Positions 4,399 to 20,266 of a DNA stretch of 55,160 nucleotides are shown in pieces. A model generated the notes under the pieces. That model made no database searches. It saw nothing but the letters and a program-made list of their open reading frames with translations, and was not told the DNA's origin. Source of the DNA: an uncultured Candidatus Saccharibacteria bacterium (GTDB lineage: Bacteria > Patescibacteriota > Dojkabacteria > SC72); the NCBI GenBank assembly GCA_964449955.1, contig CAYVBS010000002.1:1-55160 (forward strand). Reading direction: 5' to 3'. Both the position numbers and the translations under genes were made by a program. Position 1 is the stretch's first letter. Every line of letters starts with the position of its first letter.

Positions 4399-4592
4399 AA
4401 AAAGATATATGTTTACTAATTAAGATTGATAACCTGGGTACTCTCACCTTCGTTCTTATTTTCACTAAACTATTGTTATATTAAACATTTTATAAAAAAA
4501 TATGATTAGATCCCATGGCAACATTAGAATAAATGCTCAAAATTCTGAGATGTATATTAAACAGACGGGAAGGTAAGTTCTCTCTTAGAATG

Positions 4593-5924: not shown

Positions 5925-6000
5925 TTGTTCAAAACAACAAGTTAATATCGCCTATTATACACTTCTTTTTGAGTGTAGGAAAACAGTAGCTAAGTGAAAG

Positions 6001-6591
6001 TTAATCTGCAGAGATATATAATGTGAGTGAGGTAAGCTCTTCTCTGGTTGTTGGTAATCCTAAGTCTTGTAAGAAGGTTAAATTTACTTCTTGTTGAAGA
6101 AAGTCTTTTCTTACATTTAGCTCCTTCTCTGTATTTAATATCTCTTCTTTGTGATATGGATAGTCTAAAAGATAGAGATTAATATCAACAGTGCTTGTAT
6201 CTGGTTTGTTGTGTTCTTTGAGTATGTATTTGTCAGGAATTTGGTACTTCTCTGTTAGTTTAGTTTCCCATTCTTTTAATTCTTCTTCTGCTTGTATTAA
6301 CTCAGTACTTGTTAATGTAAGACCAAGCAAGTTGCTTGTTAATGAATACCCCTTTATTTCCCCTACCATTACATCTTTTACTAGCTGTAGTCTTGAGATC
6401 ATCTGCGCATTAAATCCATACTTAGGTTTATTCTCTCCGAGTTGGTTTAACTCTTTGTAATTTTTCTTACTTCTTCTCTCAATTACTAATTGTACATTAG
6501 TATTTTGGGGCAGGGTGAAATAACCAAACTTCCTTATGGATTCCTCTATTTCTTCTAGATTAAAATTTTGGTACTCTTTCTCCTCTTCCAT
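6001..6591 (-). CDS. hypothetical protein
   Basis: 196-aa ORF on the same strand as its neighbours; no motif recognised. Confidence 0.45.
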   Translation of the reverse strand: MEEEKEYQNFNLEEIEESIRKFGYFTLPQNTNVQLVIERRSKKNYKELNQLGENKPKYGFNAQMISRLQLVKDVMVGEIKGYSLTSNLLGLTLTSTELIQAEEELKEWETKLTEKYQIPDKYILKEHNKPDTSTVDINLYLLDYPYHKEEILNTEKELNVRKDFLQQEVNLTFLQDLGLPTTREELTSLTLYISAD

Positions 6592-6776
6592 ATTTAAAGA
6601 TTACAAATGTATCCTATAAAATGATAATGGTGAGGGTAAACTAAAGCAAGAAGTGGGTATTTGTACTAACTTCTAGTGAAAGATATATGGTTGTTATCTT
6701 GATGTTGACTGGGGTTACAAAGACTACTCCTGCGCAAGATATTTTGTCCATATGATTATTATACAGGAGAATTCTA

Positions 6777-6812
6777 ATGGTGGGCGATATTGAAGGGTGT
6801 AGAATATTTTTA
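6777..6812 (-). repeat. att-like site S1: tRNA-Val 3'-end core + decayed second arm
   Basis: ATGGTGGGCGATA (6777-6789) matches 20145-20157 at the tRNA-Val 3' end 13/13. The following arm, TTGAAGGGTGTAGAAT, only loosely resembles TTAAAGTGCATGGAAC. Confidence 0.7.
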
Positions 6813-6818
6813 TCTCTA

Positions 6819-7610
6819 TTACAGTCCAAATATTGATATCGTATTTTTGTAGAAAACATCGTCCTTCTGATTGTCAGAAATATCTAAACTCTTTATTAAT
6901 GATATATGATCTTGAATATTGCACATACCGTAATCACTACCATACAGAACTTTTTTATTGTATCTCTTAATGAGAGCCTCTAAGGAGTATTTAATTCTCC
7001 CTTCTCCTGTTTTTATAATAACTTCTTTATCTGCTAATGCAGATGTATCATAATTTATATTGGGAATTTCTTTTGTAATATTGAGACAATATTCTACCTT
7101 TGGCCAAAATAAATGACTGATAACAATCTTCAAAGATGGAAAATGACTAGCAACTTCAGCAATATATTTAGGATCGTTATATTTTGCACACTTGCTATCC
7201 TCACTATTTTCTCCTGTATGTATTACAAGAGGTTTGTCATATTTAATACATAATTTGAAAAAAGGTTCCAATCTTTTATCATGGGGATAATGATTATCAT
7301 GTCCTGGAAAGATCTTGAGGCCTACTATTTGATTAGATAAAAAACAATTATTCAATTCAATTAATTTACTTTTTAGATCATCTTCTAAGATATTTATAGT
7401 TCCTAACACATGAATGTTTGGTACATCGGAAAAAAGGTCTATGCACTGTTTAAGATTGCCAATCGGAGAGACTTCTACATTATCAGGTATTACAATCCCT
7501 AGTTCTATAGAGTTCTTTTTTAATTCTAACAATAGTTCCTCTCTCTGTTGTTTAAGAGATGATAGGTATGGTCTAACAGGTAAGTGTAAATGAGAATCTA
7601 TAATTTTCAT
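6819..7610 (-). CDS. metal-dependent amidohydrolase (amidohydrolase_2 / TIM-barrel hydrolase family)
   Basis: 263 aa. MKIIDSHLHL (HxH), ...VIHTGE..., ...ISHLFWP..., ...YGSDYG... are spaced as the metal ligands of this fold. Confidence 0.65.
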   Translation of the reverse strand: MKIIDSHLHLPVRPYLSSLKQQREELLLELKKNSIELGIVIPDNVEVSPIGNLKQCIDLFSDVPNIHVLGTINILEDDLKSKLIELNNCFLSNQIVGLKIFPGHDNHYPHDKRLEPFFKLCIKYDKPLVIHTGENSEDSKCAKYNDPKYIAEVASHFPSLKIVISHLFWPKVEYCLNITKEIPNINYDTSALADKEVIIKTGEGRIKYSLEALIKRYNKKVLYGSDYGMCNIQDHISLIKSLDISDNQKDDVFYKNTISIFGL

Positions 7611-7634
7611 AGATCATTATAGCAAGGTTTAGAG

Positions 7635-7669
7635 ATGGTGGGCGATATTGAAATATATGGCAAGAACAC
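7635..7669 (-). repeat. att-like site S2: tRNA-Val 3'-end core + decayed second arm
   Basis: ATGGTGGGCGATA at 7635-7647 (13/13). The second arm, TTGAAATATATGGCAAGAACACTTA, is related to the consensus with insertions. Confidence 0.7.
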
Positions 7670-8800
7670 TTATAGATTATCTTTAATCCATTGGTCGAGA
7701 GGATCTGTACTGTTCTTGTAATCCTCAATGGTAATTGGAATCTTTATATCTGGTTCAATCACATCAATATTCTGTCCAGGTAGAAGTTCAAAATACTTAT
7801 AAGAGCATGCAACTTTTATTCCTGAATTGGGAAGAACAATTTCTTTATGATCCCCAAATCTATTTGGTTTTTGTCCTGCATTTTCTCCTACCAAGGTTGC
7901 TCCTTTATTTTGTTTTAGGTATAAGAGGTGATGCATTGTTGCAGAGAAGGTTTTTCTTGCTATAGCTACATAGATAGGTTTGTTGTCTGGAAATTTTTCA
8001 AAAAGGTCTGCCATAATCTCCGTAGAACCACCATCATTCAGTCTGAAATCAACGATAATGTTTCTTGCATTCTTAGCACTCTCTAACAAATGAGCTTTGA
8101 ATTCTTCCAAGTACTCTTCCGTAAAGCCATCATTTGTACAATCGTTATATTGAAATATTAAATTACCATCTTCCATTCGGAATTGGTAAAGTTTGTTCCC
8201 CTCATATGTTGTACTCTCCTCTCTCTGTTGCTTACTCCACACTAATGGGTTCATTCGATAAAAAGTATCTCTATTCTCGCTTACCTTTAACTTTATATCT
8301 CCTTGATCTGTTTCAATTTGAATAGTTTCGGTACTGCTAAAACCATAATATCTAAGAATTTTATTAGATTCTAAAAACCAAGCTAGATCTCGTGCTAATA
8401 CTTCGGAGTTTTCTTTAGAAGAAAGATTTGCTAGTTTAGGTAGAACATTGCTAATTGTTACACCGTTGATAGCTAATAGCTGTCTGCCAAGTAAGTCAGA
8501 ATCTTTGGTTTCAGCACCAGTTATATAGAGGTTTCCTCCTATATCTAAGTACCTTACAGGGAAGAGTTCTTCTTCTCTAAATTCTTCTGACACACGTGTA
8601 TGGGCATCTCTTAAAAGGGCTAGAGATTCCTGCACTGCTATTTGAAAGAACTCCGGTTTTGCTTCAGTTGCTTTTTGTAGGGAATCCGTGAGTGTTTGTT
8701 TCTCAACATTCCTGTATGGGTCAAAGTGTATTTCTTCTAATTGCTGTTGTAGGTATTCAACATCTTTTTGTTCGGGTGTTTTTTCTAGCTCCGATTCCAT
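7670..8800 (-). CDS. S41-family (C-terminal processing / tricorn-core-like) serine peptidase homologue
   Basis: 376 aa. IIVDFRLNDGGS (cf. DLRnNgGG), KTFSATMH (cf. TaSAaE, catalytic Ser), LVGENAGQKPN (cf. GE.T.GK, catalytic Lys). Confidence 0.6.
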   Translation of the reverse strand: MESELEKTPEQKDVEYLQQQLEEIHFDPYRNVEKQTLTDSLQKATEAKPEFFQIAVQESLALLRDAHTRVSEEFREEELFPVRYLDIGGNLYITGAETKDSDLLGRQLLAINGVTISNVLPKLANLSSKENSEVLARDLAWFLESNKILRYYGFSSTETIQIETDQGDIKLKVSENRDTFYRMNPLVWSKQQREESTTYEGNKLYQFRMEDGNLIFQYNDCTNDGFTEEYLEEFKAHLLESAKNARNIIVDFRLNDGGSTEIMADLFEKFPDNKPIYVAIARKTFSATMHHLLYLKQNKGATLVGENAGQKPNRFGDHKEIVLPNSGIKVACSYKYFELLPGQNIDVIEPDIKIPITIEDYKNSTDPLDQWIKDNL

Positions 8801-8825
8801 GGCAGCATTATACAGGAAATTTGTA

Positions 8826-8860
8826 ATGGTGGGCGATATTAAAGTGCATGGAACTTAAAA
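8826..8860 (-). repeat. att-like site S3 (best-preserved copy)
   Basis: ATGGTGGGCGATA TTAAAGTGCATGGAACTTAAAA, preceded by ATTATACAGGAAATTTGTA (8807-8825), which is shared with S5. Confidence 0.8.
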
Positions 8861-8884
8861 GTGGAATTGTATTGTATACAACTT

Positions 8885-9001
8885 TGTAGGTCGTCGGACT
8901 TGCACCGCTAGATTGCTAAACGCCCCACCTTATCTTCGCTTTTCACAGCGTATAAGCAGGAACTTGCAATGTGAGCTTCTACCAACTCACAACCGACCTA
9001 C
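8885..9001 (-). ncRNA. 117-nt tRNA-like structured RNA candidate (not a canonical tRNA)
   Basis: On the minus strand, 5' GTAGGTCG pairs perfectly with 3' CGACCTAC. It has a D-loop-like GTGAGTTGGTAGAAGCTCAC, a T-arm-like CGGTGCAAGTCCG in the correct 3' register (7-nt loop + 5 + 7 + 1), and a long irregular hairpin (ATTGC...CGCT GTGAAA AGCG...GCAAT) where the anticodon and variable arms would be. It is visibly more GC-rich than its surroundings and starts 6 nt after the NUDIX stop. Confidence 0.3.
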
Positions 9002-9007
9002 TATTGA

Positions 9008-9445
9008 TTATAAATTTTCTTGTTTGAAAATTCTATTAACCCTCTTGTATATTAGATCTTCCTTATCTTCAAATACATCTTCTAATTCTAGTAGTGATAC
9101 CCATTGGTAATTCACATGTTCATCTGAAAGTATTACTTCTGGAGTATTATCTAAAGATACCAAGTATGTAGTTTCTGTTACATTCTTAATATCTCCATTC
9201 TCTTTTGTAAAGCTATAACTTTCTGAATCCACGAGTTTAAGATCTTCATGAGATATATCTATACCTGATTCTTCTTTTACTTCTCTTATTACACTTGTTT
9301 CCATATCTTCTCCTTCATCTATTCCTCCAGATGGTAATTCCCAGAATCCTGGAAGTGAGTCGTCTTTAGGAGCCCTTTGTATTAGTAAGAACTTCTTCTC
9401 TGGATTAAGTATTAAACTGGCTATGTTTTCTTTTGTTATTATCAT
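9008..9445 (-). CDS. NUDIX hydrolase
   Basis: 145 aa with a complete Nudix box: GGGIDEGEDMETSVIREVKEESGI. Confidence 0.85.
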   Translation of the reverse strand: MIITKENIASLILNPEKKFLLIQRAPKDDSLPGFWELPSGGIDEGEDMETSVIREVKEESGIDISHEDLKLVDSESYSFTKENGDIKNVTETTYLVSLDNTPEVILSDEHVNYQWVSLLELEDVFEDKEDLIYKRVNRIFKQENL

Positions 9446-9465
9446 GAGAAGTATTGTATCAGAAA

Positions 9466-9500
9466 ATGGTGGGATGTGTTGAATAGCTTGGAACTTAAAA
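9466..9500 (-). repeat. att-like site S4 (diverged core)
   Basis: ATGGTGGGATGTG (9/13 to the core) followed by TTGAATAGCTTGGAACTTAAAA. Confidence 0.6.
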
Positions 9501-9525
9501 AACTTTTAACTTTATTCATTAATAT

Positions 9526-9996
9526 CTAATCAGGAATTTCCTCAAAGATATCTTTGGTATGGAATTTTACACTTTTTCCATTGTTTAATTGCAAGGTTAT
9601 CTTTGGAAATTCATCTCTATCTTTGGCATATAGATCCCATTTAGCATTATTATGTATCTTTAAAAATTCATCAAAAGAAACAGGTATAACAAATTCTAAA
9701 TGGTCTAATTCAGATTCACATATTTGCCTTTCTTTAGGTTCAACTAATTCAAATCCTAGTATTCTATAACTTTCATATTCATATGGGTTTGAGAATCTAA
9801 AAATTGCAACTCTTCTACCACTCACAATATTCTCAGATATTAATTGACCAAGAGTAAGAGATTGTTCCTTAAGATCCTCATAATCTTGTGCAGAGGATGT
9901 TTGATAACCGAAGTGATCTAATTCCAATTTAGACACATCAAAAGGTATCTGTTCTATTAGCGAAGATGCGAAACTGTCAAAGTTGTCTGTAACCAT
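9526..9996 (-). CDS. YecM-like / VOC-superfamily protein
   Basis: 156 aa. ELDHFGYQTSS...GRRVAIFRF...ELVEPKE...ELDHLEFVIP...VKFHTKDI follows the pattern I recall for YecM (paired DH motifs, GR.I, final .FH). Confidence 0.45.
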   Translation of the reverse strand: MVTDNFDSFASSLIEQIPFDVSKLELDHFGYQTSSAQDYEDLKEQSLTLGQLISENIVSGRRVAIFRFSNPYEYESYRILGFELVEPKERQICESELDHLEFVIPVSFDEFLKIHNNAKWDLYAKDRDEFPKITLQLNNGKSVKFHTKDIFEEIPD

Positions 9997-10022
9997 ATGC
10001 TTATTATATCAGGAAATTTGTA

Positions 10023-10056
10023 ATGGTGGGCGATACTAAAAGGCATGGAACTTAAA
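10023..10056 (-). repeat. att-like site S5
   Basis: ATGGTGGGCGATA CTAAAAGGCATGGAACTTAAA, preceded by ATTATATCAGGAAATTTGTA (10003-10022). Confidence 0.8.
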
Positions 10057-10082
10057 CAAGTTTTAAGTATGACAGTTTATAT

Positions 10083-11216
10083 TTAGATGATTGGATTATC
10101 TTTAACATCATTAATTATGGTGATATTACCACCCGCTTCAACTTTTATGAAAAAGTCTTTCTTCATATCTGTTAGATATCTCTCTGGGTATACGTTTATA
10201 ATTGTTGTATATTCTATCTTTCCTAAATGACTCACGATATCTTGTATTACAGTATCCTTGTTATCTGTAACGTATTTCTGGAATTTATCATGTATAGGCA
10301 CACCTATCCATCCCACAGGGTAATCTTTTGTTTTTAGAGACAATTCTCTTAGTGATTTCATAAAACTTTTTTCATTTCGAAATATCTTACTCCAATCTAT
10401 GCCTTCGCCGGTAAAATAAGCGTCATTTTCACTCTGGACATTGAAGTACTTGTTACTACTTAATTTATAACTCATCTCTAATCCTGAGCAACCATGTTGA
10501 CCATCTTTATATTCAGTTATATATACGCCTCTGTCTATTGTATTCAACACCTGTACTTCAAAATCATCCTTTTTTACTAAAATAGTGCCATCTTGTAAGC
10601 TCTCGTTCCAGACTCTCTCTAAGGACCTATTTAATTCACTCCGAATATAACTAAGAACCTTTTTAATGAATTGGTTATTCAAGTAATCTCCTTCTATCCA
10701 GCATCCCATACTTTCACGAAGGTAAGTGTTTTCTTTAATGTAAGCTGTTCCCAGCAAAGAGTCTTCAATTAAATTATAATTAAAATCTAAACCAAATTTT
10801 GTCTTTACAGAGATTATCTTATCTTCACAAAGCCAATCCCCAAACTCACTTACTTTCTGGATATCCTTAAACCCCATCTTCTCAAGTGCTATCATAGCTC
10901 TAAACTCTTCCATGAAAGAAGCTAATTTTCTTTGTGCTTCAAAAACCGAACAATTTGATATAATTAATTCATCAAAAAGTTTGGGATATTTTTCAACATA
11001 TTTTGAAAAGGTCCTCTCTTGTTGATTTAGATACTTTTGGCTTTCATACATACGAAAGAACCAGCCGACTTCTAGTGGATTTTCAATAGTCCCACTGAAA
11101 AGCCATTTTTCTAAGAAACTACTTAAGTATGGAGCTTCTTTGAACTTATTCTTGTAGAAGTTCCAATCTGTTAATTTATTCCCCGGTACAAAGTGTTCTT
11201 CCTTAAATAAACGCAT
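10083..11216 (-). CDS. hypothetical protein
   Basis: 377-aa ORF; no motif recognised. It starts 15 nt downstream of the stop of the preceding (5'-proximal on the minus strand) 209-aa ORF, so they probably form an operon. Confidence 0.5.
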   Translation of the reverse strand: MRLFKEEHFVPGNKLTDWNFYKNKFKEAPYLSSFLEKWLFSGTIENPLEVGWFFRMYESQKYLNQQERTFSKYVEKYPKLFDELIISNCSVFEAQRKLASFMEEFRAMIALEKMGFKDIQKVSEFGDWLCEDKIISVKTKFGLDFNYNLIEDSLLGTAYIKENTYLRESMGCWIEGDYLNNQFIKKVLSYIRSELNRSLERVWNESLQDGTILVKKDDFEVQVLNTIDRGVYITEYKDGQHGCSGLEMSYKLSSNKYFNVQSENDAYFTGEGIDWSKIFRNEKSFMKSLRELSLKTKDYPVGWIGVPIHDKFQKYVTDNKDTVIQDIVSHLGKIEYTTIINVYPERYLTDMKKDFFIKVEAGGNITIINDVKDNPII

Positions 11217-11231
11217 AGTCTGAACGTGCTA

Positions 11232-11861
11232 TTACAATCTTATTTTATAGCTTTTGAAGTCTTTTGCAATTTCAAACTTATACTCAGAGTGTCCTTCTCT
11301 TTCAGGATCAAGATCAACAACAGTGTAAATGTACTTTCCTTCTTTTTGGCTTAAGAGAATCAACAAGTAAAAAGCAAACTCTTTTTCAGATTTAAGGTAT
11401 TCTTTTATTTCTTGGGCTGTAGATTGTCCATCTATATCTAAAAATATAACGAGAACAGTCTCTCCTACCTGGGCATAGTGTTTTTTGTGTTTTCCCTTGA
11501 TTTTATCTACTATTAGCTGAGATATGAGTATGTCTTTTGTTGTTTCTGACGATTCTTCTCGTGTTAGCATTGTCTGTTCTAGTTCTATGTATTCTTCTTC
11601 TTCTCTTGTAGTAAGTTTAAGATAGCCATCTAAGGGGTCCTCGTCTATATTATTTTTACATATGCTCCACGAAACGTTTTTACCTTCGTAAACTTTATTC
11701 ATTACTTCAGAAATAATTAAAGCTGTTAGTGCCTCTCTCATCTTTGTATTAGTTAGTGTACAGTTAATATCTTTTGTCAGAATATTTTGGGGATCCTTTA
11801 TTGCGGGGATTAACTCTTTAAATAAAGCTTGTGGATTTACTGTTTCTCTTTTGATATGCAC
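11232..11861 (-). CDS. hypothetical protein
   Basis: 209-aa ORF with a GTG start. TGATATAAT (11899-11891, minus) lies ~30 nt upstream. No confident motif. Confidence 0.45.
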   Translation of the reverse strand: MHIKRETVNPQALFKELIPAIKDPQNILTKDINCTLTNTKMREALTALIISEVMNKVYEGKNVSWSICKNNIDEDPLDGYLKLTTREEEEYIELEQTMLTREESSETTKDILISQLIVDKIKGKHKKHYAQVGETVLVIFLDIDGQSTAQEIKEYLKSEKEFAFYLLILLSQKEGKYIYTVVDLDPEREGHSEYKFEIAKDFKSYKIRL

Positions 11862-12016
11862 TTTATACGTGAAGACATAAATTATTTATAATTATATCAG
11901 TAAATTCTGATGTTTCATTAGTATAAACATACATAATATATAACGTTATTAGATATGCAGATTTGTTTGGAATCTCATAAACTCTTTTGGTCTAGTCATT
12001 AAGAGGTTAAAAAGAC

Positions 12017-12050
12017 CCTGCTGGCGATATTAAAATGCATGGAACTTAAA
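12017..12050 (-). repeat. att-like site S6 (left boundary of the recombinase-bearing unit)
   Basis: CCTGCTGGCGATA (8/13 to the core; the GGCGATA half is intact) followed by an intact second arm, TTAAAATGCATGGAACTTAAA. Confidence 0.7.
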
Positions 12051-12085
12051 GTCGGTGTAAGTTTTATTGTTAAATACCTAAAGAC

Positions 12086-13039
12086 TTAACTTGGATTCTT
12101 TATTAAACTGATACTACGATTTACAAAGGGATCATGTTTCCAGCTCCTATTTCTTTTTCGAATCCTGTTTATGTGGGTAAGAAGTAGTTCCTGGAATAAG
12201 TAGTTATCTCTTTTAGCAAAGTAAATAAGAAGATTCTCCCCTATCCTATTATTTTTATCTTTTTTCGATTCTAGGAGCTCGTTTACAACTCGCTCAATAT
12301 TATTCTTACCTTCGATTAGTAATTGCTTCTTCCTAAATTGATTTTTAAATTTGTTCATTAGTTGATAAACTGTGTCGTCGTACTTGTCATAATTTTTATG
12401 AATTTGATCTACCAGCTTATCGATATCAGAGTAATCAAAACTTGTTACAAGAGCTTGTTTATCTTTGTGTGCTTTGATTTCTGTTATTAATTTGTTCCAG
12501 GATTCCTCGATGGTAAAAGGCATTGGTAGCCCAACTCGGACTTTTTCAATTGTTTCAAGATACAGTTTCTTTGCATTTGCTTCAGATAGACTTAATTTGT
12601 CTATCATATCCATGGTTATGTATATCATTCCAGGGGCTAGAAATGAGTCTCTAGGATCAAAATCTTTTATACCATACTTCTTTCGCTCCACTTCAGTAAG
12701 ATCGTCTCCACCGGTATTTGAGCAACCATTAATATCTAGATCATTTACTTCAAAATACAAGCATAAACTTTCAAGAAGCTTTCCTTCTCTTTCAAGTAGA
12801 TCTGCCATCTGATGAATATCATTTCTATATAACCCCCAATCCCTGTTTTTAGCATTAATTAGCTTGTCCTTATTCAAGTACGCCCACATTACATCATGAT
12901 ACGATGGTGGGTTACCCCATGCCTTCTTAAGTTGTTGATATATTTGTAATAAGTCCTTGTTCTCTGTAATTCTTTTATCGATATTTGGAGCGGAAGGAGT
13001 TGTTGATCCAGAACTAAGAAGCAATTCTAGAAGTCTCAT
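12086..13039 (-). CDS. hypothetical protein
   Basis: 317-aa ORF, helical and charged; no motif recognised. It starts 58 nt downstream of the DGQHR fusion gene on the minus strand. Confidence 0.5.
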   Translation of the reverse strand: MRLLELLLSSGSTTPSAPNIDKRITENKDLLQIYQQLKKAWGNPPSYHDVMWAYLNKDKLINAKNRDWGLYRNDIHQMADLLEREGKLLESLCLYFEVNDLDINGCSNTGGDDLTEVERKKYGIKDFDPRDSFLAPGMIYITMDMIDKLSLSEANAKKLYLETIEKVRVGLPMPFTIEESWNKLITEIKAHKDKQALVTSFDYSDIDKLVDQIHKNYDKYDDTVYQLMNKFKNQFRKKQLLIEGKNNIERVVNELLESKKDKNNRIGENLLIYFAKRDNYLFQELLLTHINRIRKRNRSWKHDPFVNRSISLIKNPS

Positions 13040-13097
13040 TATTGCTACTAATTAAATTAGTTTAGAGCTTTTAGAAATCCAGGTCTCATAGGATTTC

Positions 13098-15308
13098 TTA
13101 TTTTGCACTATTAATCATCTGATAGCCCTCTCTAAAAAGAGAGTTGTAACTATCTAGTTTATCTTTGAGGTACAATTTTAATTGATCCTCTTTCTCACCA
13201 TCGAGACGAATCTTTTTTGCGTTGAGTTTATACCAACTCTTAAGTCGATTCTTTGATCTTACTGCACATACTCCAATATCTGTCGCAGGCACTATTATCT
13301 CAAGTACTAGAGGGCTGTCTTTGAATTTCTGAAGAATTACATCGTCAAGAGAGTAGCCTTTTACTAATATGTGATCATGAAGTTTACTTTGAAAGAATTG
13401 TTGAAGTTTGTCAAAGTTCCCATCAAAATAATCCTCATATTCTGTATCTATGCCTGTAATCATTTTGTTATCTCGGATCCCAACATAGATGTGGCCCTCA
13501 ACACCCTTGTTTATATACGCACAAATTGTACCGAGTATGGCGTCTTCGAAAAGGTTGGGATCAGCATTGTCTTCTTTAATGTTATAGGCAAATGTCTCTT
13601 TAAATTCATGGGTCAAATCTTCTTCAATTTTTGAAATAAAACTGTCACTTGCAAGTTCTTTGAATGATTCATTTAATTCCCCAGCTTTTAGAATTATATC
13701 TTCAGCAATCTCTCGTCTCCCACTTTCGGAGGAATCCTTTTTCTCCTCCACCAATCTATCTATGCCATAACTTAGTAACGCTTCTGATATGGTGTCTGTA
13801 AAATTTATAAGATCACCTTTCAGCTCACTTTGTGATAGGTGTTTCAGATCTCTTCTTTTAATAAGCAAGTATTGATAGAACTTATTAAGTATGTAGCTCA
13901 AAATTGCGACTCCATTGTTACTGCAAATGAATCCTTTATCTCCCATTTCCCAGTCTTCTTTGATCTTTTCTGTCTCAATGAGGGATCCAAAATATATATC
14001 TAAGAATTTGTAATACTTATCGATGTCTTTATCTAAAAGTAGTTTGTAGACCTTAGTAACTTTTGATTTAAAGGAAACTCCAATGTTGTTAATTTTCAGA
14101 CTATAACTCTTTGCATCTTTTAGAGAGATACTTGGAATGTATATTTGATCCTTGAAAAATACTGACTTTCTGTTCAAGTCTTTAACTAACCGAGCAAGTT
14201 TGTACTTGTCATCTGTTTCAGGATAGATATCTGTGTAGAGATCCCAAAGATAATCTGGTTGTATACTTTTTTGATTTTGGTTGATCTCAACAAATAAATT
14301 TGCTTGCTCAGCTTGTGATAACTGTGAAAAAGCTATTACATTAAGCATATGATCGTGAGCAATCTGATCCAGACCAGAATAGCCAAATAATCTGTGCTGA
14401 CCATCTATGATCCAGGCATAACCATATTCTTCAGGAAACTTAAGCCATCCGGGAGTAACATTCGCTGCTCTTCTTTCTGCATTTCGCTGTTCAAGTGATG
14501 AAAACTCAAGCTTTTTATCAAAGTTGATAAGTATTGGTGTCGGAAATGAATTGCCTTCAATACTAAGAAACTTTTGAATAGCTTTGATTTTGGGAATATC
14601 AATCATTCTCTGGTAAGTAACATCGCTCCCATCAGTATTTATAGAATTTTCAAAATTTCGCCTATGTACATATGCAATTTTGAGAAGATCTTCTGGGCTC
14701 ATTTGAAAATTGTAACAATCAAAGCCTTTATAGTTGCCTTTAGTTACAAGACAATTATAACTTTTATTTCCACGCCCCCATTTTTTTCCTTTTTGAGCAA
14801 GTAAATCTGAGAAGATTATGTGTGAAGACCGATCTTTAAGCTTTTCAGCTAATGATAAGTATTGAGAAAGAATTTTACTATTCCAAAGATCAATTTTATC
14901 TTCTTTGGCTTTTTTAAAGTTTGTTAAGCTTAGGTCGTTATCTGAGTAAATAAGTAAAAATAAACAAGGTTTGTCACTTTTCGTAAATTTTCTCAAGTAG
15001 TTTTGAATCTCACTTTTATTTGCAGCAATTTTATCAATCTCTTCAGTTACGATATGAGAATTACCACTTTTACACTCAACTACAAATTGTACATCTTCAA
15101 ACTCTGCATATACATCAATTTCATAATTCGTTCTAGCTAATTTTACAATGAAAGGTTGCGAACTTATGTTTAGAGGATTCATAAGTAAAAGCATGTATCT
15201 TACTTTTGCCTCTAATCGTTCACTTACCTTCTCAAGCGTTTCATAATTTTTGTTTGTCTGGACTAACTCCTCGTACTCTGCAGTTCCGATCTGTGTTAAT
15301 TCCTTCAT
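13098..15308 (-). CDS. three-domain fusion: PD-(D/E)xK nuclease-like + DGQHR (DndB/ParB-like) + AlbA_2/Schlafen-like DNA-binding domain
   Basis: The ORF track extends to the TTG at 15347; the ATG at 15308 (MKELTQIG) is preferred. N-terminus: EIDVYAEFEDVQFVVECKSG (D...E-x-K). Middle: AWIIDGQHRLFGY and LFVEINQNQKSI (DGQHR domain signature). C-terminus: THEFKETF...ICAYINKGVEGHIYVGIRDNKMITGID (AlbA_2/Schlafen pattern). Confidence 0.6.
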   Translation of the reverse strand: MKELTQIGTAEYEELVQTNKNYETLEKVSERLEAKVRYMLLLMNPLNISSQPFIVKLARTNYEIDVYAEFEDVQFVVECKSGNSHIVTEEIDKIAANKSEIQNYLRKFTKSDKPCLFLLIYSDNDLSLTNFKKAKEDKIDLWNSKILSQYLSLAEKLKDRSSHIIFSDLLAQKGKKWGRGNKSYNCLVTKGNYKGFDCYNFQMSPEDLLKIAYVHRRNFENSINTDGSDVTYQRMIDIPKIKAIQKFLSIEGNSFPTPILINFDKKLEFSSLEQRNAERRAANVTPGWLKFPEEYGYAWIIDGQHRLFGYSGLDQIAHDHMLNVIAFSQLSQAEQANLFVEINQNQKSIQPDYLWDLYTDIYPETDDKYKLARLVKDLNRKSVFFKDQIYIPSISLKDAKSYSLKINNIGVSFKSKVTKVYKLLLDKDIDKYYKFLDIYFGSLIETEKIKEDWEMGDKGFICSNNGVAILSYILNKFYQYLLIKRRDLKHLSQSELKGDLINFTDTISEALLSYGIDRLVEEKKDSSESGRREIAEDIILKAGELNESFKELASDSFISKIEEDLTHEFKETFAYNIKEDNADPNLFEDAILGTICAYINKGVEGHIYVGIRDNKMITGIDTEYEDYFDGNFDKLQQFFQSKLHDHILVKGYSLDDVILQKFKDSPLVLEIIVPATDIGVCAVRSKNRLKSWYKLNAKKIRLDGEKEDQLKLYLKDKLDSYNSLFREGYQMINSAK

Positions 15309-15488
15309 CGATTTTTTTATAAATTTAGTAAAGATAAATATTAGCAAGGATCGCCATTGTCAACTCTTACCATCAAGTTTCTTAGGATAGTTATATTTTT
15401 TTAATCCCCAACGCTCAAAAATTTTACAGTCCGATAAAGATTATTAAAATTTAAACAATTCCTATCATTTCGAGTAGTCAAAGTCTTA

Positions 15489-16478
15489 CTAATAATTCAA
15501 ATTTACATCAATTGAATCGTTTATATTTGTAGAAGTTGTTTCTATGTAACCACTAGACTTATTTCCCGCTTTATCTATAGCAATAACTTTATACTTATTT
15601 AAACCGCCATGTATCATTAAATTAATTCTCTGATATACTTCTCCATTTTCATCCCACTTAATCTTTTTCCCATCTACTGTTAGTGAGGCAAGGTTTCCAC
15701 TAACACAACCTACAATCGGAGTTGAAGTTATAGAGTCTTGATAGCCCTGCCAATCGCCTATTGTTATATCTACAACCTCTTCTGTGTTAGTGTTACTATA
15801 ACTACACGAGGTGCCAAAATAGTTCTTTATTGTAGGAGGCATTGAGTCTAAATAGACACTTTGAGCCAAAATCTTACTAGTTTCATTCCCAAACTTGTCT
15901 GCAAGCTTAAAAGTAAGAGTATTAGTTCCTTCGGACAACTTATAATTAATATTAAAGGTTCCATCTTTATTCACATTGTAAGCTTTCTCATTAACAAGTA
16001 ATACATCTCCTTGAGCTATTTTGCCTTTTAAAGCGATATCTGATTTATTTGTTTGTTTTGGAAAAGATGTTGTTATTTTGAAAGTACTTACATCTGGGGC
16101 GGTGAGATCTACTTTTATTGTTACCGGCGAAGTGAATTCACTTTCGATATTTTTATATATTTGCTTTACTTTAATGACTGTCTCACCCTCTTTTGTGACA
16201 ACCATGTTTTTACTAAAATTGCCTTCATTGTCAATAATTGCTTCTTCTACAAACTTATCATTAATATAAACAAGTACTTTTGCTTTAGGATAACCTACTC
16301 CGAGTAGAACAAATCTTCCTCCTGATTCTTTATTTAAATCCTTGAGTATAGGGGCTGGTAAAAAAGTTAATGGTTCTGGCCGATTAATTACTCTAAAGTA
16401 TAGGAATAGACAGAATATGAGTACTAGTAAAGCCCCTACAAAAAGAAGTACCCTTTTAAAGTGAGGAGAAACTATCAT
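15489..16478 (-). CDS. membrane-anchored protein with Ig-like beta-sandwich repeats
   Basis: 329 aa. N-terminal TM (LLFVGALLVLIFCLFLYF). VLVYINDKFVEEAIIDNEGNFS...DLTAPDV...KLADKFGNET runs parallel to the 23672-24631 protein (VYVYVNDEFVNSANVEDGQFS...DWTPPST...IEDKAGNRV). Confidence 0.55.
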   Translation of the reverse strand: MIVSPHFKRVLLFVGALLVLIFCLFLYFRVINRPEPLTFLPAPILKDLNKESGGRFVLLGVGYPKAKVLVYINDKFVEEAIIDNEGNFSKNMVVTKEGETVIKVKQIYKNIESEFTSPVTIKVDLTAPDVSTFKITTSFPKQTNKSDIALKGKIAQGDVLLVNEKAYNVNKDGTFNINYKLSEGTNTLTFKLADKFGNETSKILAQSVYLDSMPPTIKNYFGTSCSYSNTNTEEVVDITIGDWQGYQDSITSTPIVGCVSGNLASLTVDGKKIKWDENGEVYQRINLMIHGGLNKYKVIAIDKAGNKSSGYIETTSTNINDSIDVNLNY

Positions 16479-16557
16479 TTGTTGTCTTAATTAATTTAGC
16501 TAAAACTATAATTAATACATGTTTGCGTATATTTATTGTGTAATTCTATTCAATAAA

Positions 16558-17250
16558 TCATTCAAATATTGCTTCAAAGTACTGATTTTTAACTATACTT
16601 TTATAGGTATCGTTACTTATTTCCTTTATATAAGGGCATTTAGTTGTATCTTTCCCTAGGAGACCAGTTGCACAGTAATTAATTATTACTAAGTTCTCCC
16701 AAGCGTCAGAAAACACTTCCTCTTTTTTTATATTTGAAAAAGCACTTACAATATCTTCATAAACTGAAGGACTTCTGTATTGAGGATTGTTGTATAGATA
16801 ATCTACCTCTGCATTAATATAATCAGAAAGAACTTTTGACGAAGGTAAAAGATGTACAGCCTTTCTATAAAATTTTATAGCAAAGTCCAAACCTTTCTCT
16901 TCCTTCAAGCCTACTAGTAGGTTTAAGATATTACTCTCTAAGGCAATCTCGTGGAATAAATAGGACAGTAACTGTTTATAATGTTTTTGTTGCTTACTGA
17001 CATCTACCCCTTTCTCTGCTTTTACCTTTTTAACATCTTCTTCTGTAAGATCCGATGCATAAATTGTTCCCAAGACTAGTGACTGAATACATATCTGAGG
17101 ATTGAATAGCTCTGTTATATAAAAAGGAAGTAGAATTATCTCATCAACTGGAAAGTCTTCTTCTGCTCCCCACAACTCCCGGATTTTCTCTTTGGGAAAC
17201 CAATACAGTCCCTCCTCTAGCTTATCTAATTTATATACTTTTGAGATCAT
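16558..17250 (-). CDS. hypothetical protein
   Basis: 230-aa ORF; no motif recognised. Confidence 0.45.
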   Translation of the reverse strand: MISKVYKLDKLEEGLYWFPKEKIRELWGAEEDFPVDEIILLPFYITELFNPQICIQSLVLGTIYASDLTEEDVKKVKAEKGVDVSKQQKHYKQLLSYLFHEIALESNILNLLVGLKEEKGLDFAIKFYRKAVHLLPSSKVLSDYINAEVDYLYNNPQYRSPSVYEDIVSAFSNIKKEEVFSDAWENLVIINYCATGLLGKDTTKCPYIKEISNDTYKSIVKNQYFEAIFE

Positions 17251-17271
17251 CGAAACTTTATAAGAAATAAA

Positions 17272-17733
17272 CTAGGTTATAGCAAAAATTATATTTATCA
17301 CTGAAAGGATTACAGCTATTAGACCAACAGTGTATACAATCATTTTGAAATCTCTTCTTTCGTGGAGAAAAAGCCCCTTCTCTTTCCAACAGAAGTTATT
17401 GTCTTTATCAAAATAGAAAATATATTCTTCCTTGTTTACTTCAAATGTTTTTACAAATGAGTGTTTATCAACAAAAACAGTACCATCTGTATATGTCTTG
17501 TCTGTTTCTTTTAAATGCTCTAATGCGTCAGAAAAGCTTACAATTTTTTCTTTTGGAAGCTGCCTGTCTAGGTACTTATATAAAAGAGCCCCGAAAACAA
17601 GAGTTACAAAGAATAGTGCAAATTGTATTTTAGATGGGTATGCATCAGTCAATAGGAAAAATATGATGAGATATCCAAAGCTCAATATGATTTCAATCAC
17701 TTTATCTAGCTTTTGAGATGTTTTACTTTTCAT
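17272..17733 (-). CDS. hypothetical membrane protein
   Basis: 153 aa with two N-terminal and one C-terminal hydrophobic span. Confidence 0.45.
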   Translation of the reverse strand: MKSKTSQKLDKVIEIILSFGYLIIFFLLTDAYPSKIQFALFFVTLVFGALLYKYLDRQLPKEKIVSFSDALEHLKETDKTYTDGTVFVDKHSFVKTFEVNKEEYIFYFDKDNNFCWKEKGLFLHERRDFKMIVYTVGLIAVILSVINIIFAIT

Positions 17734-17945
17734 TGGTATGTTGAAAATGAGAATTAATAGCGAGACCCAGTTTCAACAGTTTTTGTGGGATAGGTAGATA
17801 AGGGACTATTTGCTTAGAAGTTATTGTTCTTATTAACTTGTTCAAGAGGGTCATAGCAAACAAGTGTAATTTAAATATTGGCATATTATAAACAATTTTT
17901 ACTTTTTTCTAAAGTATAACTACTATTTGATATAATTCTTCAATA

Positions 17946-18356
17946 ATGACCCTAGACGAACTAAAGAAAAACTTTTTACTAAGTGAAAGGCTGCCTAGTG
18001 AAGAAGAGTACAAAAAGAATAAGTACTCTTCTACTCAACTAGTAATCATTGAAGGCAAAGCTTATTGGCTAATTTTCCGAACTAGATTAGAAAGAATCAT
18101 GTATGAATATCTGGAGAACTCCAATAACTACAAAGCTAAAGAGAGTTTATTTGGGATAGGAATAAAGAAGGGATATGCCTATGTTAGTAAACAATCATTA
18201 CCCTTTTTTATACAACTAGTCCTACCTCAGAAGTGGGTTATAGAAGATAGAAACATTAAAAGAGAGTTATCCATAGTGGTTACCAATGGAGATAATCCTA
18301 ATAAGAACCTGTTACATGAGTTGTATTCAAAGACTAGAGATTTAAAAATTAGTTAA
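17946..18356 (+). CDS. hypothetical protein upstream of the recombinase (candidate accessory/directionality factor, speculative)
   Basis: 136-aa ORF, co-directional with the recombinase and 25 nt upstream of it. Its stop codon lies inside the inverted 14-nt arm copy. Confidence 0.4.
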   Translation: MTLDELKKNFLLSERLPSEEEYKKNKYSSTQLVIIEGKAYWLIFRTRLERIMYEYLENSNNYKAKESLFGIGIKKGYAYVSKQSLPFFIQLVLPQKWVIEDRNIKRELSIVVTNGDNPNKNLLHELYSKTRDLKIS

Positions 18357-18366
18357 GTTCCATGCA
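18353..18366 (+). repeat. inverted 14-nt copy of the second att arm (TTAAGTTCCATGCA)
   Basis: Exact reverse complement of TGCATGGAACTTAA found in S3 and S6. It sits 16 nt upstream of the recombinase ATG and has no adjacent core. Confidence 0.6.
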
Positions 18367-18381
18367 GTACCTTCCTATTTA

Positions 18382-20175
18382 ATGGATGAGCAAAATCGAA
18401 AGAAAAAAGTAGCACTATACATAAGGGTTTCGACTGATGAACAAGCTGATATGTATGGAGTGGATTTGCAAAGAAGTGCATTGATGGGGCTAATTGCTTC
18501 TAAAGGGCATAATCTTGAATTTGCTGGAGATCAGTATGTGTATATTGATGAAGGTGTTAGTGGAACAGTAGTACCAGCAGAAAGGCCAGCATTTAGAAGA
18601 TTAATGGAAGACATTTCAAGGTCCTCTACTCGACCATTTGATGTTGTGGCTGTATACAAAATTGATAGATTTGCCAGGAGACTTAAGGTCTTGTTGGATA
18701 TATTAGATATTTTTGATAAAGGCGAGGAGAAAATCGAGTTTCTTTCTGCAAATGAAAGTATAGATACATCTACTCCTTTTGGAAGAGCTATGCTTGGGAT
18801 AATTGGAGTAATTGCAGAACTTGAATTAGAGAATATCAAGGAAAGAACTAGTGATGGTCGGCAATCATCTGCTGAGAAAGGTACATATATGAATATTCCC
18901 CCACTTGGATATGTTAAGGGAATAGATGGGAAGATAGTTGTTCAAGAAGAAGAGAGCAAAGTTGTACAACTAATATTCAACATGTATGTTCTTGAAGGAA
19001 GAGGTGTTCAGGATATTGCAAGGTATTTAAGAAACCATAAAGTAAAATCACCTCAGACATTTAGATACGAGCATAACAAAGAAAACAAGGGTAACAGAAA
19101 GTCGAGTAAAGGTGGACCATATTATTGGGATTCTTCCGCAGTAAAGGCGGTGTTACAAAATGAACTGTATATTGGGATTCAGTATTACAATAAGACTAAA
19201 AATGGCAAGAAACTACAAAAAGATCAGTGGGGAGTATATTACCATGATCAAGAATTAATCGATAAAGAGACATTTGAAAAAGCTCAGAAATATATACTAG
19301 CTGGAAGGAAAAGTTATCATGCTAGACAAAGTGATAACAGATTATACTTACTGCAAGGACTATTAAAATGTGCCAACTGTTTTGATCCAACCCTTAACGC
19401 TGAACCATATGTATGGAATGGAAGTCCCCATGTTGTCAAAAGTACAGGGAACAAGTCTTATTACTATTCTTGTAGTTCTAAACATAGCGAAAAGAAGTCG
19501 CGAAGAAAAATTGATTGTAAAGCCCTACCATTACCTGCAGAGCCTTTAGAAAAGCATGTGATTGATTTTATAAGAACTTTACTTAACAATCCTCGGGCTG
19601 TATTTAAATATCAACAAGAGCTTCAATCAAAGAAGGTGGATGTCAGAAATAAAAGAGACAAGCTCAAGATGATAAAAGAGTTAATTAACACTAATGAGAG
19701 TGCTAAGAGACGAGTACAGATAATGTATAGGGATGGTGATATATCAAGAGAACAAAAAGACAAAGAATTGAAGGAGTTAAAAGCCCAGTTGGATAGGAAC
19801 ATGAGGGAGAAGGAAGCCTTAGATACTGAATTAGCAATATACACTAATAAAGAGGAGTATTTTAAAGCTTTTGAGTTGTTCCAACAGAAATATGAAGAAG
19901 CTATGAATGAGTATATGCAAGATGGAAATAGTGAATATCTGTACAAACTAATTCATATGATGATTGAAGAAGTTATCGTATTCTCTCGACCCAAAAGAAA
20001 AACAGACAGTATTTCTGGACCCAAGAAAGAAGGGCAAATGGTTCCATATAAATTGAATATTGTTCTTAAGATACCTTCAGAAATGCTTAGCGACTTGCTT
20101 TTCTCGCTTGCTCCTGAAGCTAAGTTACAGGCAGAAAAAGATGGATGGTGGGCGATACGGGACTCGAACCTGTGA
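18382..20175 (+). CDS. large serine recombinase
   Basis: 597 aa. Resolvase catalytic domain VALYIRVSTDEQ (Ser nucleophile) ...YKIDRFARR..., a recombinase domain, a Cys-rich zinc-ribbon region (CANCFDP...YYYSCSS), and a long coiled coil. The last 30 nt overlap the tRNA-Val gene on the opposite strand. Confidence 0.9.
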   Translation: MDEQNRKKKVALYIRVSTDEQADMYGVDLQRSALMGLIASKGHNLEFAGDQYVYIDEGVSGTVVPAERPAFRRLMEDISRSSTRPFDVVAVYKIDRFARRLKVLLDILDIFDKGEEKIEFLSANESIDTSTPFGRAMLGIIGVIAELELENIKERTSDGRQSSAEKGTYMNIPPLGYVKGIDGKIVVQEEESKVVQLIFNMYVLEGRGVQDIARYLRNHKVKSPQTFRYEHNKENKGNRKSSKGGPYYWDSSAVKAVLQNELYIGIQYYNKTKNGKKLQKDQWGVYYHDQELIDKETFEKAQKYILAGRKSYHARQSDNRLYLLQGLLKCANCFDPTLNAEPYVWNGSPHVVKSTGNKSYYYSCSSKHSEKKSRRKIDCKALPLPAEPLEKHVIDFIRTLLNNPRAVFKYQQELQSKKVDVRNKRDKLKMIKELINTNESAKRRVQIMYRDGDISREQKDKELKELKAQLDRNMREKEALDTELAIYTNKEEYFKAFELFQQKYEEAMNEYMQDGNSEYLYKLIHMMIEEVIVFSRPKRKTDSISGPKKEGQMVPYKLNIVLKIPSEMLSDLLFSLAPEAKLQAEKDGWWAIRDSNL

Positions 20176-20222
20176 CCTCCACAATGTCAATGTGATGCTC
20201 TAACCAGCTGAGCTAATCGCCC
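20146..20222 (-). tRNA. tRNA-Val (anticodon GAC), CCA encoded
   Basis: Hand fold of the minus strand: GGGCGAT TA GCTC AGCTGGTTA GAGC A TCACA TTGACAT TGTGG AGGTC ACAGG TTCGAGT CCCGT ATCGCCC A CCA. The cloverleaf is regular apart from one A-C mismatch in the T stem. Confidence 0.85.
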
Positions 20223-20233
20223 TAATATTTGGT

Positions 20234-20262
20234 ATTTTATCGTTATTACAAAGAATTATCAA
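20234..20262 (-). promoter_or_regulatory. candidate sigma70-type promoter of tRNA-Val
   Basis: On the minus strand, TTGATA (20262-20257), a 17-nt spacer, then TAAAAT (20239-20234). The -10 box ends 11 nt before tRNA position 1. Confidence 0.4.
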
Positions 20263-20266
20263 CATC

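Follow-up and report, generated by a model that had tools for sequence, protein, structure and literature searches.

The stretch of DNA analyzed here, called the window throughout, is 55,160 nt long and comes from an uncultured Candidatus Saccharibacteria bacterium (GTDB Patescibacteriota; Dojkabacteria; SC72; assembly GCA_964449955.1, contig CAYVBS010000002.1, positions 1-55,160 of the forward strand). In it, a row of small genes separated by copies of a short site leads up to the 3′ end of a tRNA-Val(GAC) gene, and a gene for a large serine recombinase (LSR) reads into that same tRNA end. Core genes flank this array, with AspRS on one side and ClpP, trigger factor, and sortase on the other, and the remainder of the window consists of housekeeping genes. 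Rfam detected no family besides the tRNA over the whole window, and Pfam and PADLOC annotation of its open reading frames (ORFs) found no second recombinase besides the LSR. From the comparisons below, we consider it probable that the locus is an integron-like array of mobile single-gene cassettes, seated at the tRNA-Val 3′ end in Candidatus Dojkabacteria and moved by the LSR. An earlier note on this DNA had raised the worry that the contig is chimeric at the tRNA; this is removed by an independent Logan contig (L001), 100% identical to the window over 17896-20419, which runs from the recombinase across the tRNA into the downstream gene and shows that the junction is no assembly artifact.

The units of the array are bounded by a 13-bp core, ATGGTGGGCGATA, found exactly on the plus strand at 6777, 7635, 8826, 10023, and 20145. 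The last copy (20145-20157) is the tRNA-Val 3′ end itself with one flanking base: given the minus-strand position of the tRNA gene, the 13-mer comprises the last base of the T-stem, the acceptor strand, the discriminator, CCA, and one base beyond. This end is proposed to act as the attB-side half-site, and the same layout is seen at 38 related tRNA-Val junctions. With up to three mismatches allowed, the core has 18 matches in the window against 6.5 expected, with no shuffle attaining 18, and degenerate cores stand at 9466 (ATGGTGGGATGTG) and 12017 (CCTGCTGGCGATA). To the right follows a second shared element, the arm TTAAARTGCATGGAACTTAAA, present at 8839, 10036, and 12030 with zero to two mismatches (0.01 matches expected); GGAACTTAAA occurs additionally at 9490, and the right arm is decayed at 6790 and 7648. 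Thus, the recurrence of the tRNA-derived 13-mer and the existence of a second arm, both described in the earlier note, are confirmed. The left arm that it also reported, ATTATA(T)CAGGAAATTTGTA, is indeed present at 8806 and 10003, with a related form at 6757, and in the window is largely the −10 box and the start of a leaderless gene; it does not extend to the site in general, with almost no left-flank conservation over 185 related sites. Scanned with a matrix built from these 185 sites, the 55-kb window yields no more than four full sites (8826, 9466, 10023, and 12017), and 20 shuffles yield none. At 6777 and 7635, the core persists but the arm is lost, and both copies score under the matrix threshold. 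We number the six boundaries S1 to S6 from the distal end toward the tRNA (Table 1).

Relatives of the array were gathered by a pattern scan of GTDB species genomes (14 loci) and metagenome contigs (82 more), together with loci reached via recombinase homologues; individual loci are designated L followed by a number. The 14 GTDB loci all belong to Candidatus Dojkabacteria or similarly labeled Patescibacteria genome bins. Altogether, there are ~225 sites in ~100 Dojkabacteria loci, with up to eight sites per array and all sites co-oriented within every locus. Where the tRNA at the array end is visible, it is tRNA-Val (GAC or TAC) at 38 junctions, read away from its 3′ end. Two arrays end instead at tRNA-Lys(TTT), in L063 (around 6564) and L086 (around 1535); these junctions share with the cassette core only [A/C]TGGTG, plus a similar T-arm, GGAGACTCGAAC. 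In contigs of 76-760 kb, the pattern matched at a single place each, which, with the arrays ending at tRNA 3′ ends, bears out the earlier expectation that the site is confined to this kind of locus. At a few tRNA-Val junctions (L021, L044, L050, L067, and L075, of which L044, L050, and L067 are apparently one strain), the sequence reads ATGGGCGATA: one TGG triplet is gone and CCA is not encoded, and the cassette cores in the same arrays retain TGGTGG. Such junctions could be products of slipped or misaligned exchange in the TGG-TGG repeat.

The conserved block opens with the core, ATGGTGGGC(G/T)A(T/C)A; nine variable bases separate it from the invariant arm ATGGAACTTAA, after which comes a weakly conserved stretch. 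Unit length has a median of 706 bp (166 units, 145 of them below 1.5 kb); exactly one ORF of at least 60 aa is found in 130 of the 158 units under 3 kb, at a coding density of 87%. The 184 ORFs sort into 82 unrelated families, and Pfam searches with 64 family representatives returned radical SAM proteins, methyltransferases (one of RrnaAD type), NUDIX, Ham1, deaminases, peptidases of the M16, M23, and S66 families, short-chain dehydrogenase, alginate lyase, and 5′-3′ exonuclease. In 108 units, the largest ORF points the same way as the tRNA gene, and in 47 it points the opposite way (about 30% inverted). A TATAAT-like box precedes the start codon in 79 of 91 minus-strand cassettes, mostly by 5-8 nt, implying leaderless mRNAs. 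At the minus-strand gene starts of the window (6751-6776, 7610-7634, 8800-8825, 9445-9465, and 9996-10022), the place expected for a −35 element is taken by the tRNA-derived core itself. Plus-strand cassette genes begin 66-80 nt past the core and never at the ATG of the arm, so that the 'MELK' encoded there was rejected as a cassette-gene start. In one unit (L020 2141-2680), the first base of the next core completes the TAA stop codon of the gene; the base before the core is usually an A, and core-completed stop codons may therefore be common.

Because each site in the window has a TATAAT and an ATG at a fixed distance, we considered whether the repeat serves as a promoter or regulatory sequence, or is one of the dispersed elements akin to repetitive extragenic palindromic (REP) sequences, and resembles a tRNA end by chance. 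The TATAAT-like boxes between core and start in most minus-strand cassettes, and the exact cores at 6777 and 7635 despite their decayed arms, fit such an element. However, the −10 boxes lie in the variable left flank, outside the conserved site, and the inverted cassettes carry their gene on the other strand. Moreover, within the window, the matrix finds the site only in this array, and in the relatives, it occupies one place per long contig and is always linked to a tRNA 3′ end. We rejected this explanation, which the earlier note had named as a way of refuting its proposal, and regard it as hardly credible.

The order and content of cassettes vary between relatives. The window from 8827 to 10056, holding the NUDIX and YecM cassettes, is 97% identical to L018 4836-6065, and both neighbors differ. 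The homology with L018 and L023 begins exactly at S3, and that with L018 stops at 10056, within S5; L023 has the NUDIX unit but not YecM with it, its homology running to 9445 and stopping just short of the degenerate site at 9466. By clustering, 30 cassette families (84 of 174 units) recur with differing neighbors and orders. Family 2, for instance, is found as [7][2][12]tRNA in L032, [1][2][8] in L036, [2][12][24]... in L060, [2][25][28]tRNA in L066, and [2][12][.][24]tRNA in L096. In three independent cases, one cassette end abuts the tRNA in one genome (L022, L032, and L041) and a further cassette elsewhere (L018/L023, L060/L096, and L095, respectively). The earlier description of independent cassettes bounded by a tRNA-derived site thus gains from the relatives what it lacked in a single contig, and the invariant gene order that would have spoken against it is not what we found. 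At the level of strains, a search for alleles with six window proteins retrieved only short Logan contigs, colinear with the window or ending inside the tRNA.

The point of exchange was approached by a linkage test on 24 junction pairs that share the left flank only and 49 that share the right flank only. Core positions 1-8 track the left flank, whereas the bases from position 10 on show no linkage to the left flank and partial linkage to the right one; this switch places the exchange inside the tRNA-derived core. The comparison of loci shows reshuffling at the level of single cassettes, site-specific and, as read from the junctions, comprising insertion, deletion, and reordering via the core, with the participation of the tRNA junction. 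Ordinary homologous recombination or gene conversion between sites of ~35-65 bp, for example after DNA uptake, would also shuffle units: the sites offer 20-35 bp of near-identity, and some pairs appear mosaic between core and spacer (L051 995 versus L075 698). Yet, tracts of this length are very short for exchange of the RecA type; the arrays sit strictly at tRNA-Val or tRNA-Lys 3′ ends, with which they have only the core in common; all sites are co-oriented; and the linkage switch between positions 1-8 and 10 onward is sharp. We find this account highly improbable.

The only recombinase available in the window, the LSR, has Resolvase (PF00239, 7.5e-33), Recombinase (PF07508, 1.2e-20), and zinc-ribbon (PF13408, 2.1e-5) domains and the motif YIRVSTDEQ; this is the domain set of large serine recombinases, which have about 450-700 aa. 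It is only distantly related to characterized serine integrases, the best match among solved structures being the catalytic domain of the TP901-1 integrase (E 3e-18). The last 30 nt of the gene overlap the tRNA, and the stop codon lies inside the tRNA gene, the C-terminal ..GWWAI being encoded by TGG TGG GCG ATA of the core. LSR homologues are abundant in bacteria of the candidate phyla radiation (CPR). Eight contexts were compared, with protein identities of 75% (L025), 74% (L092 and L098), 73% (L027), 59% (L110), 58% (L111), 44% (L120), and 43% (L113); the gene runs into the tRNA-Val 3′ end in all eight, and the proteins end in ..WWA(I/T/M/V). The 44% identical recombinase (L120 5470-7329) belongs to a higher-GC, non-Dojkabacteria CPR contig, where it reads into the 3′ end of tRNA-Val(TAC) with no array beside it, and hence the overlap habit predates the arrays.

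In Dojkabacteria, the LSR is carried by an element that is the tRNA-adjacent unit in all nine loci. Elements of 7-13 kb comparable to that of the window occupy the same slot in L025, L027, L092, L098, L110, L111, L113, and L119. The far end of the element is on the contig in seven of the nine loci, marked by a normal core-spacer-arm site (e.g., L025, L092, L098, L111, and L113). The cargo in the window includes a DpdB-like/Schlafen-AlbA_2 protein (13098-15347, minus strand) and an Ig-domain protein (15489-16478); across loci, it includes DpdB-like/Schlafen proteins, Mrr-type nucleases, a type IIG restriction-modification enzyme, and an FtsK/SpoIIIE-like protein. The DpdB-like protein of the window (749 aa) matches DpdB in PADLOC and Schlafen AlbA_2 and has a DGQHR motif; a 63% identical copy forms a single cassette adjoining the tRNA in L088 (288-2480), which indicates that element cargo and cassettes draw on a common gene pool. 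The element of L119 (IMGVR_UViG_3300001242_001150, 363-12947) is an integrated 12.5-kb recombinase element listed as viral by IMG/VR. Its cargo includes the type IIG restriction-modification enzyme (Eco57I/MmeI-like), the FtsK/SpoIIIE-like protein, which is reminiscent of the proteins by which integrative elements of actinomycetes transfer double-stranded DNA, and a weak match to a small terminase, and no capsid genes were recognized in it. An ORF of 130-137 aa precedes the LSR in every Dojkabacteria element examined. In the window, this ORF encodes 136 aa without a Pfam or PADLOC family and may be a directionality factor or regulator. L045 has a fragment of it next to the tRNA (3133-3273), at a place devoid of a recombinase.

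Several features tie the LSR to the cassette site. The far end of the element bears the same spacer, arm, and mini-ORF as the cassettes, and close to its 3′ end, the LSR coding sequence contains a proposed P half-site, TAAGTTACAGGCA, that forms an inverted repeat with the cassette arm TGCATGGAACTTA. The joined ends of the element make a candidate attP, in which the P and P′ arms (TAAGTTNCANGCA) match at 11 of 13 positions, symmetrically about core 4|5, in five of seven elements. Ahead of the LSR gene, 17 nt before its start codon, the arm motif recurs as TTAAGTTCCATGC, a copy that three relatives conserve (Table 1). This copy is oriented like the 3′-end half-site, so that two such motifs bracket the LSR gene, and the upstream copy could be an autoregulatory binding site or a relic.

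The arm carries a second signal. In 85.5% of sites, an ORF of 13-16 codons starts at its ATG, compared with 14% for control ATGs. The consensus of this mini-ORF is MELK[NS][RK]IxLxxx[ILF], with 0.44, 0.79, and 0.29 bits of conservation at codon positions 1-3, and conservation is equal in cassettes of both orientations; by these measures, the mini-ORF looks translated. Plus-strand cassette genes begin −4 to +14 nt from its stop codon in 30 of 40 cases, a spacing that suggests translational coupling. The mini-ORF is also in frame with the LSR through core and spacer, and at 92% of sites no stop interrupts that frame. In an excised circle joining the LSR to a cassette arm, the 0-5 tRNA-encoded residues at the end of the recombinase would be replaced by ~22 extra residues.

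In general terms, the system can be rationalized as follows. A cassette consists of a ~65-bp site (the 13-bp tRNA-derived core, the 9-bp spacer, the arm ATGGAACTTAA, and the rest of the 13-16-codon mini-ORF), one tightly packed gene, and the next core. The enzyme is most likely the LSR clade that overlaps the tRNA 3′ end, whose 7-13 kb cargo element uses this same junction for integration. The attP of the circular element would be made of the P half-site in the 3′ coding end of the LSR, the core, and a cassette-type arm, and the attB half-site of the tRNA T-arm and acceptor end. Two modes of movement can be envisaged. (i) In trans: a cassette circle, bearing a variable flank, core, and arm, would recombine with the tRNA junction, with the LSR supplied in trans. 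(ii) In cis: the element would excise by recombination between its tRNA-side junction and a distal cassette site, taking the intervening cassettes along; any distal site could serve because all bear the same arm. The block would then integrate at the tRNA-Val of a new genome, from which the element may later leave alone, with the cassettes staying behind. The cis mode fits the data equally well as insertion in trans. It needs only the canonical reactions, attP × attB and attL × attR, and offers an explanation for an LSR that is tRNA-adjacent yet usually absent; it would also account for selection on an in-frame tail in every cassette. By analogy, it corresponds to the accretion and cis-mobilization described for cis-mobilizable elements (CIMEs), at the scale of single genes. 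Tentatively, and with less assurance than for the array itself, we raise the possibility of a second, independently evolved cassette system in which a double-stranded tRNA-derived site is served by the LSR of a helper element and each site encodes an alternative LSR C-terminal tail as a built-in switch of directionality or stability. The form of the LSR would then depend on its state: a short tRNA-encoded tail when integrated, and ~22 more residues when excised beside a cassette.

Of the earlier claim that a single LSR serves the array, part survives: it is the sole recombinase of the window, and its element ends in the cassette arm. It is not a resident enzyme, being carried by a separate 7-13 kb mobile element found in a minority of arrays. 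This is the first of several observations that weigh against LSR-driven mobility. Of the arrays in which the junction with the tRNA can be seen (38), ~30 have no LSR between array and tRNA, as judged within 8-14 kb of sequence per locus; with most arrays lacking an LSR nearby, the assignment of the enzyme rests on the shared sites. The left flanks are not conserved, and a cassette circle therefore presents one recognizable half-site only, which would make cassette site × attB an unusual pairing for a serine integrase. A direct-repeat core of 9-13 bp is more than a serine recombinase needs. In serine integrases, an attP spans about 50 bp and has imperfect inverted-repeat half-sites on either side of a central dinucleotide, and the half-sites of attB are related but differently spaced. 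Here, the cues to the crossover position conflict, linkage pointing to 8-10, and the P/P′ symmetry and the tRNA-Lys junctions (where identity is limited to TGGTG) to 4-6; opposite hints also come from L111, where all four cassette cores carry the position-8 variant of the tRNA itself, and L098, where the single site does not. The tRNA T-arm motif AGGTTCGAG aligns best 4 bp nearer the center than the P/P′ arms, an offset that resembles the difference in spacing between attP and attB of serine integrases, and this register is only modestly better than others. Finally, no contig had the terminal repeats of a circular form, and neither a P-core-P′ junction, in any locus scanned or in IMG/VR, nor an empty site was seen.

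Some of these points would be met if the arrays are real and mobile but moved by another enzyme, a chromosomal tyrosine or Xer-type recombinase or one encoded elsewhere, the LSR elements merely sharing the tRNA target. Sites of tyrosine integrases typically have such an identical core of 9-13 bp taken from the 3′ end of a tRNA, the LSR is missing from the 8-14 kb examined in most arrays, and linkage puts the exchange near 8-10, off the center of P/P′ symmetry. Nevertheless, no tyrosine recombinase was found in the window or the annotated neighborhoods, and the spacer, arm, and mini-ORF at the far end of the element are identical in kind to those of cassettes. The arm, moreover, pairs with the 3′ end of the LSR and continues its frame. 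A coincidentally shared target does not explain the shared arm, the inverted repeat, and the continued frame, and we judge a different enzyme unlikely, though it deserves to be kept in mind.

Alternatively, the units could be passive relics of serial integration and decay of LSR elements, with no present mobility of single cassettes. Remnants flanked by att sites and devoid of a recombinase do accrete at tRNA genes (PMC5704250; tycheposon islands, bioRxiv 10.1101/2020.12.28.424599). Relatives of element genes stand by the tRNA in L088 (the 749-aa cargo protein, alone) and L045 (the fragment of the 136-aa ORF), and the arms are decayed at the two most distal sites of the window. In contrast to random decay, 130 of 158 units hold one intact gene placed within a few bases of both sites, at the coding density given above. 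Site quality shows no gradient with distance from the tRNA (rho −0.06, p 0.69), which speaks against simple relics, and tblastn with the LSR as query matched nothing but full-length genes next to a tRNA, with no fragments inside the arrays. Reassorted single units are joined precisely in the core, and the mini-ORF is kept open at a fixed length. Taken with these points, a purely relic origin appears rather improbable, and cassettes moved by the LSR remain the reading we favor.

The features of the array region are collected in Table 1. The unit sizes reported previously (about 0.86, 1.19, 0.64, 0.56, 2.0, and 8.1 kb), as well as the strands and predicted functions, agree with our ORF and Pfam analysis.

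Table 1. Features of the tRNA-Val array region, in window positions
Feature	Position	Strand	Evidence or remark
Probable oldest unit: 196-aa ORF 6001-6591 and a short ORF	5925..6776	-	No recognizable site left of the unit
S1: exact core, decayed right arm; most distal recognizable boundary	6777..6812	+	Under matrix threshold
Cassette 1: Amidohydro_2 gene 6819-7610, TATAAT 5 nt before ATG	6790..7634	-	Pfam
S2: exact core; right arm decayed through insertions/deletions	7635..7670	+	Under matrix threshold
Cassette 2: Peptidase_S41-like gene 7670-8800	7648..8825	-	Pfam; same-strain contigs confirm gene order
S3, full site: core 8826-8838, 9-nt spacer, arm ATGGAACTTAA from 8848	8826..8889	+	Matrix score 50.6
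S3 mini-ORF: 13 codons, MELKSGIVLYTTL and stop	8848-8889	+	
Cassette 3: structured-RNA-like module 8862-9001, then NUDIX gene 9008-9445	8890..9465	-	Pfam, homology
S4, degenerate site: core ATGGTGGGATGTG, arm CTTGGAACTTAA, mini-ORF with TTG start	9466..9529	+	Matrix score 38.9
Cassette 4: YecM-like gene 9526-9996	9530..10022	-	Pfam
S5, full site: exact core, arm, mini-ORF MELKQVLSMTVYI and stop	10023..10086	+	Matrix score 53.4
Cassette 5: two ORFs, 10083-11216 and 11232-11861, no Pfam family	10087..12016	-	
S6, far end of LSR element: degenerate core CCTGCTGGCGATA, perfect arm, 16-codon mini-ORF	12017..12089	+	
LSR element, 8.1 kb, in the slot adjoining the tRNA	12017..20144		Pfam, PADLOC
136-aa ORF directly upstream of LSR	17946..18356	+	37-52% identical copies in L025, L027, L092, L098, L110, L111
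Arm-motif copy TTAAGTTCCATGC, upstream of LSR start codon	18353..18365	+	Conserved in L025 (near 9983), L027 (near 716), L111 (near 9782)
LSR, 597 aa	18382..20175	+	Pfam Resolvase, Recombinase, Zn_ribbon_recom
TAAGTTACAGGCA, proposed P half-site within LSR coding sequence	20121..20133	+	Inverted repeat with cassette arm TGCATGGAACTTA
tRNA-Val(GAC), array anchor	20146..20222	-	ARAGORN; Rfam tRNA, 65.6 bits

Homologues of the 196-aa protein of the probable oldest unit lie inside other arrays (e.g., L036, between sites 4155 and 4909), and the family of cassette 1 occurs also in L032, L058, and L075. S4, which separates the NUDIX and YecM cassettes, is identical in L018 and L039; cassette 4 is common to these two loci and has a different right-hand neighbor there. 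The non-coding module of cassette 3 (8862-9001, minus strand) is ~140 nt long, is 90-98% identical over ~20 loci (L032 3629-3768, L060 1091-1227, and L096 4691-4830 among them), and in some arrays stands alone as a cassette of 231-236 bp. Its fold is cloverleaf-like, with an 8-bp closing stem and compensatory changes in five of the 37 predicted pairs; no Rfam family matches it, and ARAGORN needs a relaxed threshold to call it tRNA-like, with an insert of 38 nt. The module is a candidate new structured RNA carried as a cassette. Outside the array, a 595-aa ORF amid the housekeeping genes (1561-3348, minus strand) has no Pfam match at E ≤ 1e-5.

How does this array compare with known systems? 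Integrons also consist of small, mostly single-gene cassettes of unrelated functions, each with a site of its own and with order and content varying between relatives, and new junctions arise at one fixed end. They differ in using the IntI tyrosine integrase, whereas here none was found by the array, either with Pfam in the window or as a Phage_integrase family in the fetched neighborhoods. Integron attC sites form hairpins; the present site is a direct repeat with one conserved arm, and its folds are no more stable than those of shuffled sequences (single-stranded DNA folds of S3 and S5, both strands, z −0.6 to −1.1), so that attC-like hairpins were rejected. A hairpin or T-arm-like fold of the right arm, judged by eye, was likewise discarded, not being conserved among spacer variants. 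Furthermore, integrons are anchored at attI, in contrast to a tRNA 3′ end, and most of the cassettes described here have their own −10 box and leaderless start, about 30% are inverted, and the candidate serine recombinase is on a separate mobile element. With neither IntI nor attC-like folding, the array is not an integron.

Among serine recombinase systems, the staphylococcal cassette chromosome (SCC) is the closest parallel. The Ccr large serine recombinases (CcrAB and CcrC) target the 3′ end of rlmH (orfX) in staphylococci, and tandem composites include recombinase-less units between direct repeats. A large serine recombinase acting at the 3′ end of a housekeeping gene, and recombinase-less units between direct repeats, are thus common to both. 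SCC islands, however, are 3-60 kb long and sit at rlmH; here, the units are single genes at tRNA-Val or tRNA-Lys, and the LSR gene itself spans the core. As the target differs, the array is not an SCC. In Acinetobacter plasmids, pdif modules are small gene modules lying between dif-like XerC/D sites of alternating orientation. They share with the array the small size of the modules, the short sites, and the varying contexts, but the sites described here are directly repeated, tRNA-derived, and chromosomal.

CIMEs resemble the array in that att-flanked units without a recombinase accumulate in tandem where a conserved gene has its 3′ end, next to an integrase element, and composite excision can move neighbors in cis (PMC5704250). 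Such a tandem of recombinase-less units with an integrase element is present in the window and in L111; most arrays have no such partner nearby. CIMEs are few, kilobases long, and visibly decayed from integrative and conjugative elements (ICEs) or integrative and mobilizable elements (IMEs) (PMC5704250), whereas the arrays contain up to eight or more compact single-gene units of ~0.7 kb with a 65-bp site and free reassortment, in a CPR host. As a sign of decay from an autonomous element, one fragment of the 136-aa ORF was found, in L045, tblastn having detected none of the LSR. Tycheposons of Prochlorococcus integrate at tRNA genes, leave partial-tRNA repeats, and push older material inward; a large serine recombinase is found in 27 of 937, and they are multi-gene elements with replication modules, one to two per genome on average, whose remnants are described as degenerate (bioRxiv 10.1101/2020.12.28.424599). 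The LSR elements described here integrate at a tRNA and bring cargo, in which neither primase nor polymerase was seen. The mini-cassettes are without tycheposon hallmark genes, and the tycheposon paper (bioRxiv 10.1101/2020.12.28.424599) reports no single-gene cassette arrays with a conserved arm and mini-ORF. A full-text search of a limited paper collection returned no description of such a system. Cassette arrays and LSR accretion at tRNA sites are each known in kind; there is a substantial chance that their combination amounts to a cassette platform of a new kind.

Among systems that stockpile and reshuffle single genes, only integrons are well understood, and the origin of their cassettes is an open question. 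A parallel system built from other parts, namely a tRNA 3′ end, a double-stranded site, and probably a visiting serine recombinase, would show that cassette platforms evolved more than once. The pairing of a ~65 bp site with a tRNA-Val-specific recombinase clade also provides candidate tools for genome engineering, and the sequence signature can serve to mine the accessory gene pool of Dojkabacteria from metagenomes. For the streamlined, uncultured CPR bacteria, whose horizontal transfer is poorly known, such arrays would be a major route of gene flux.

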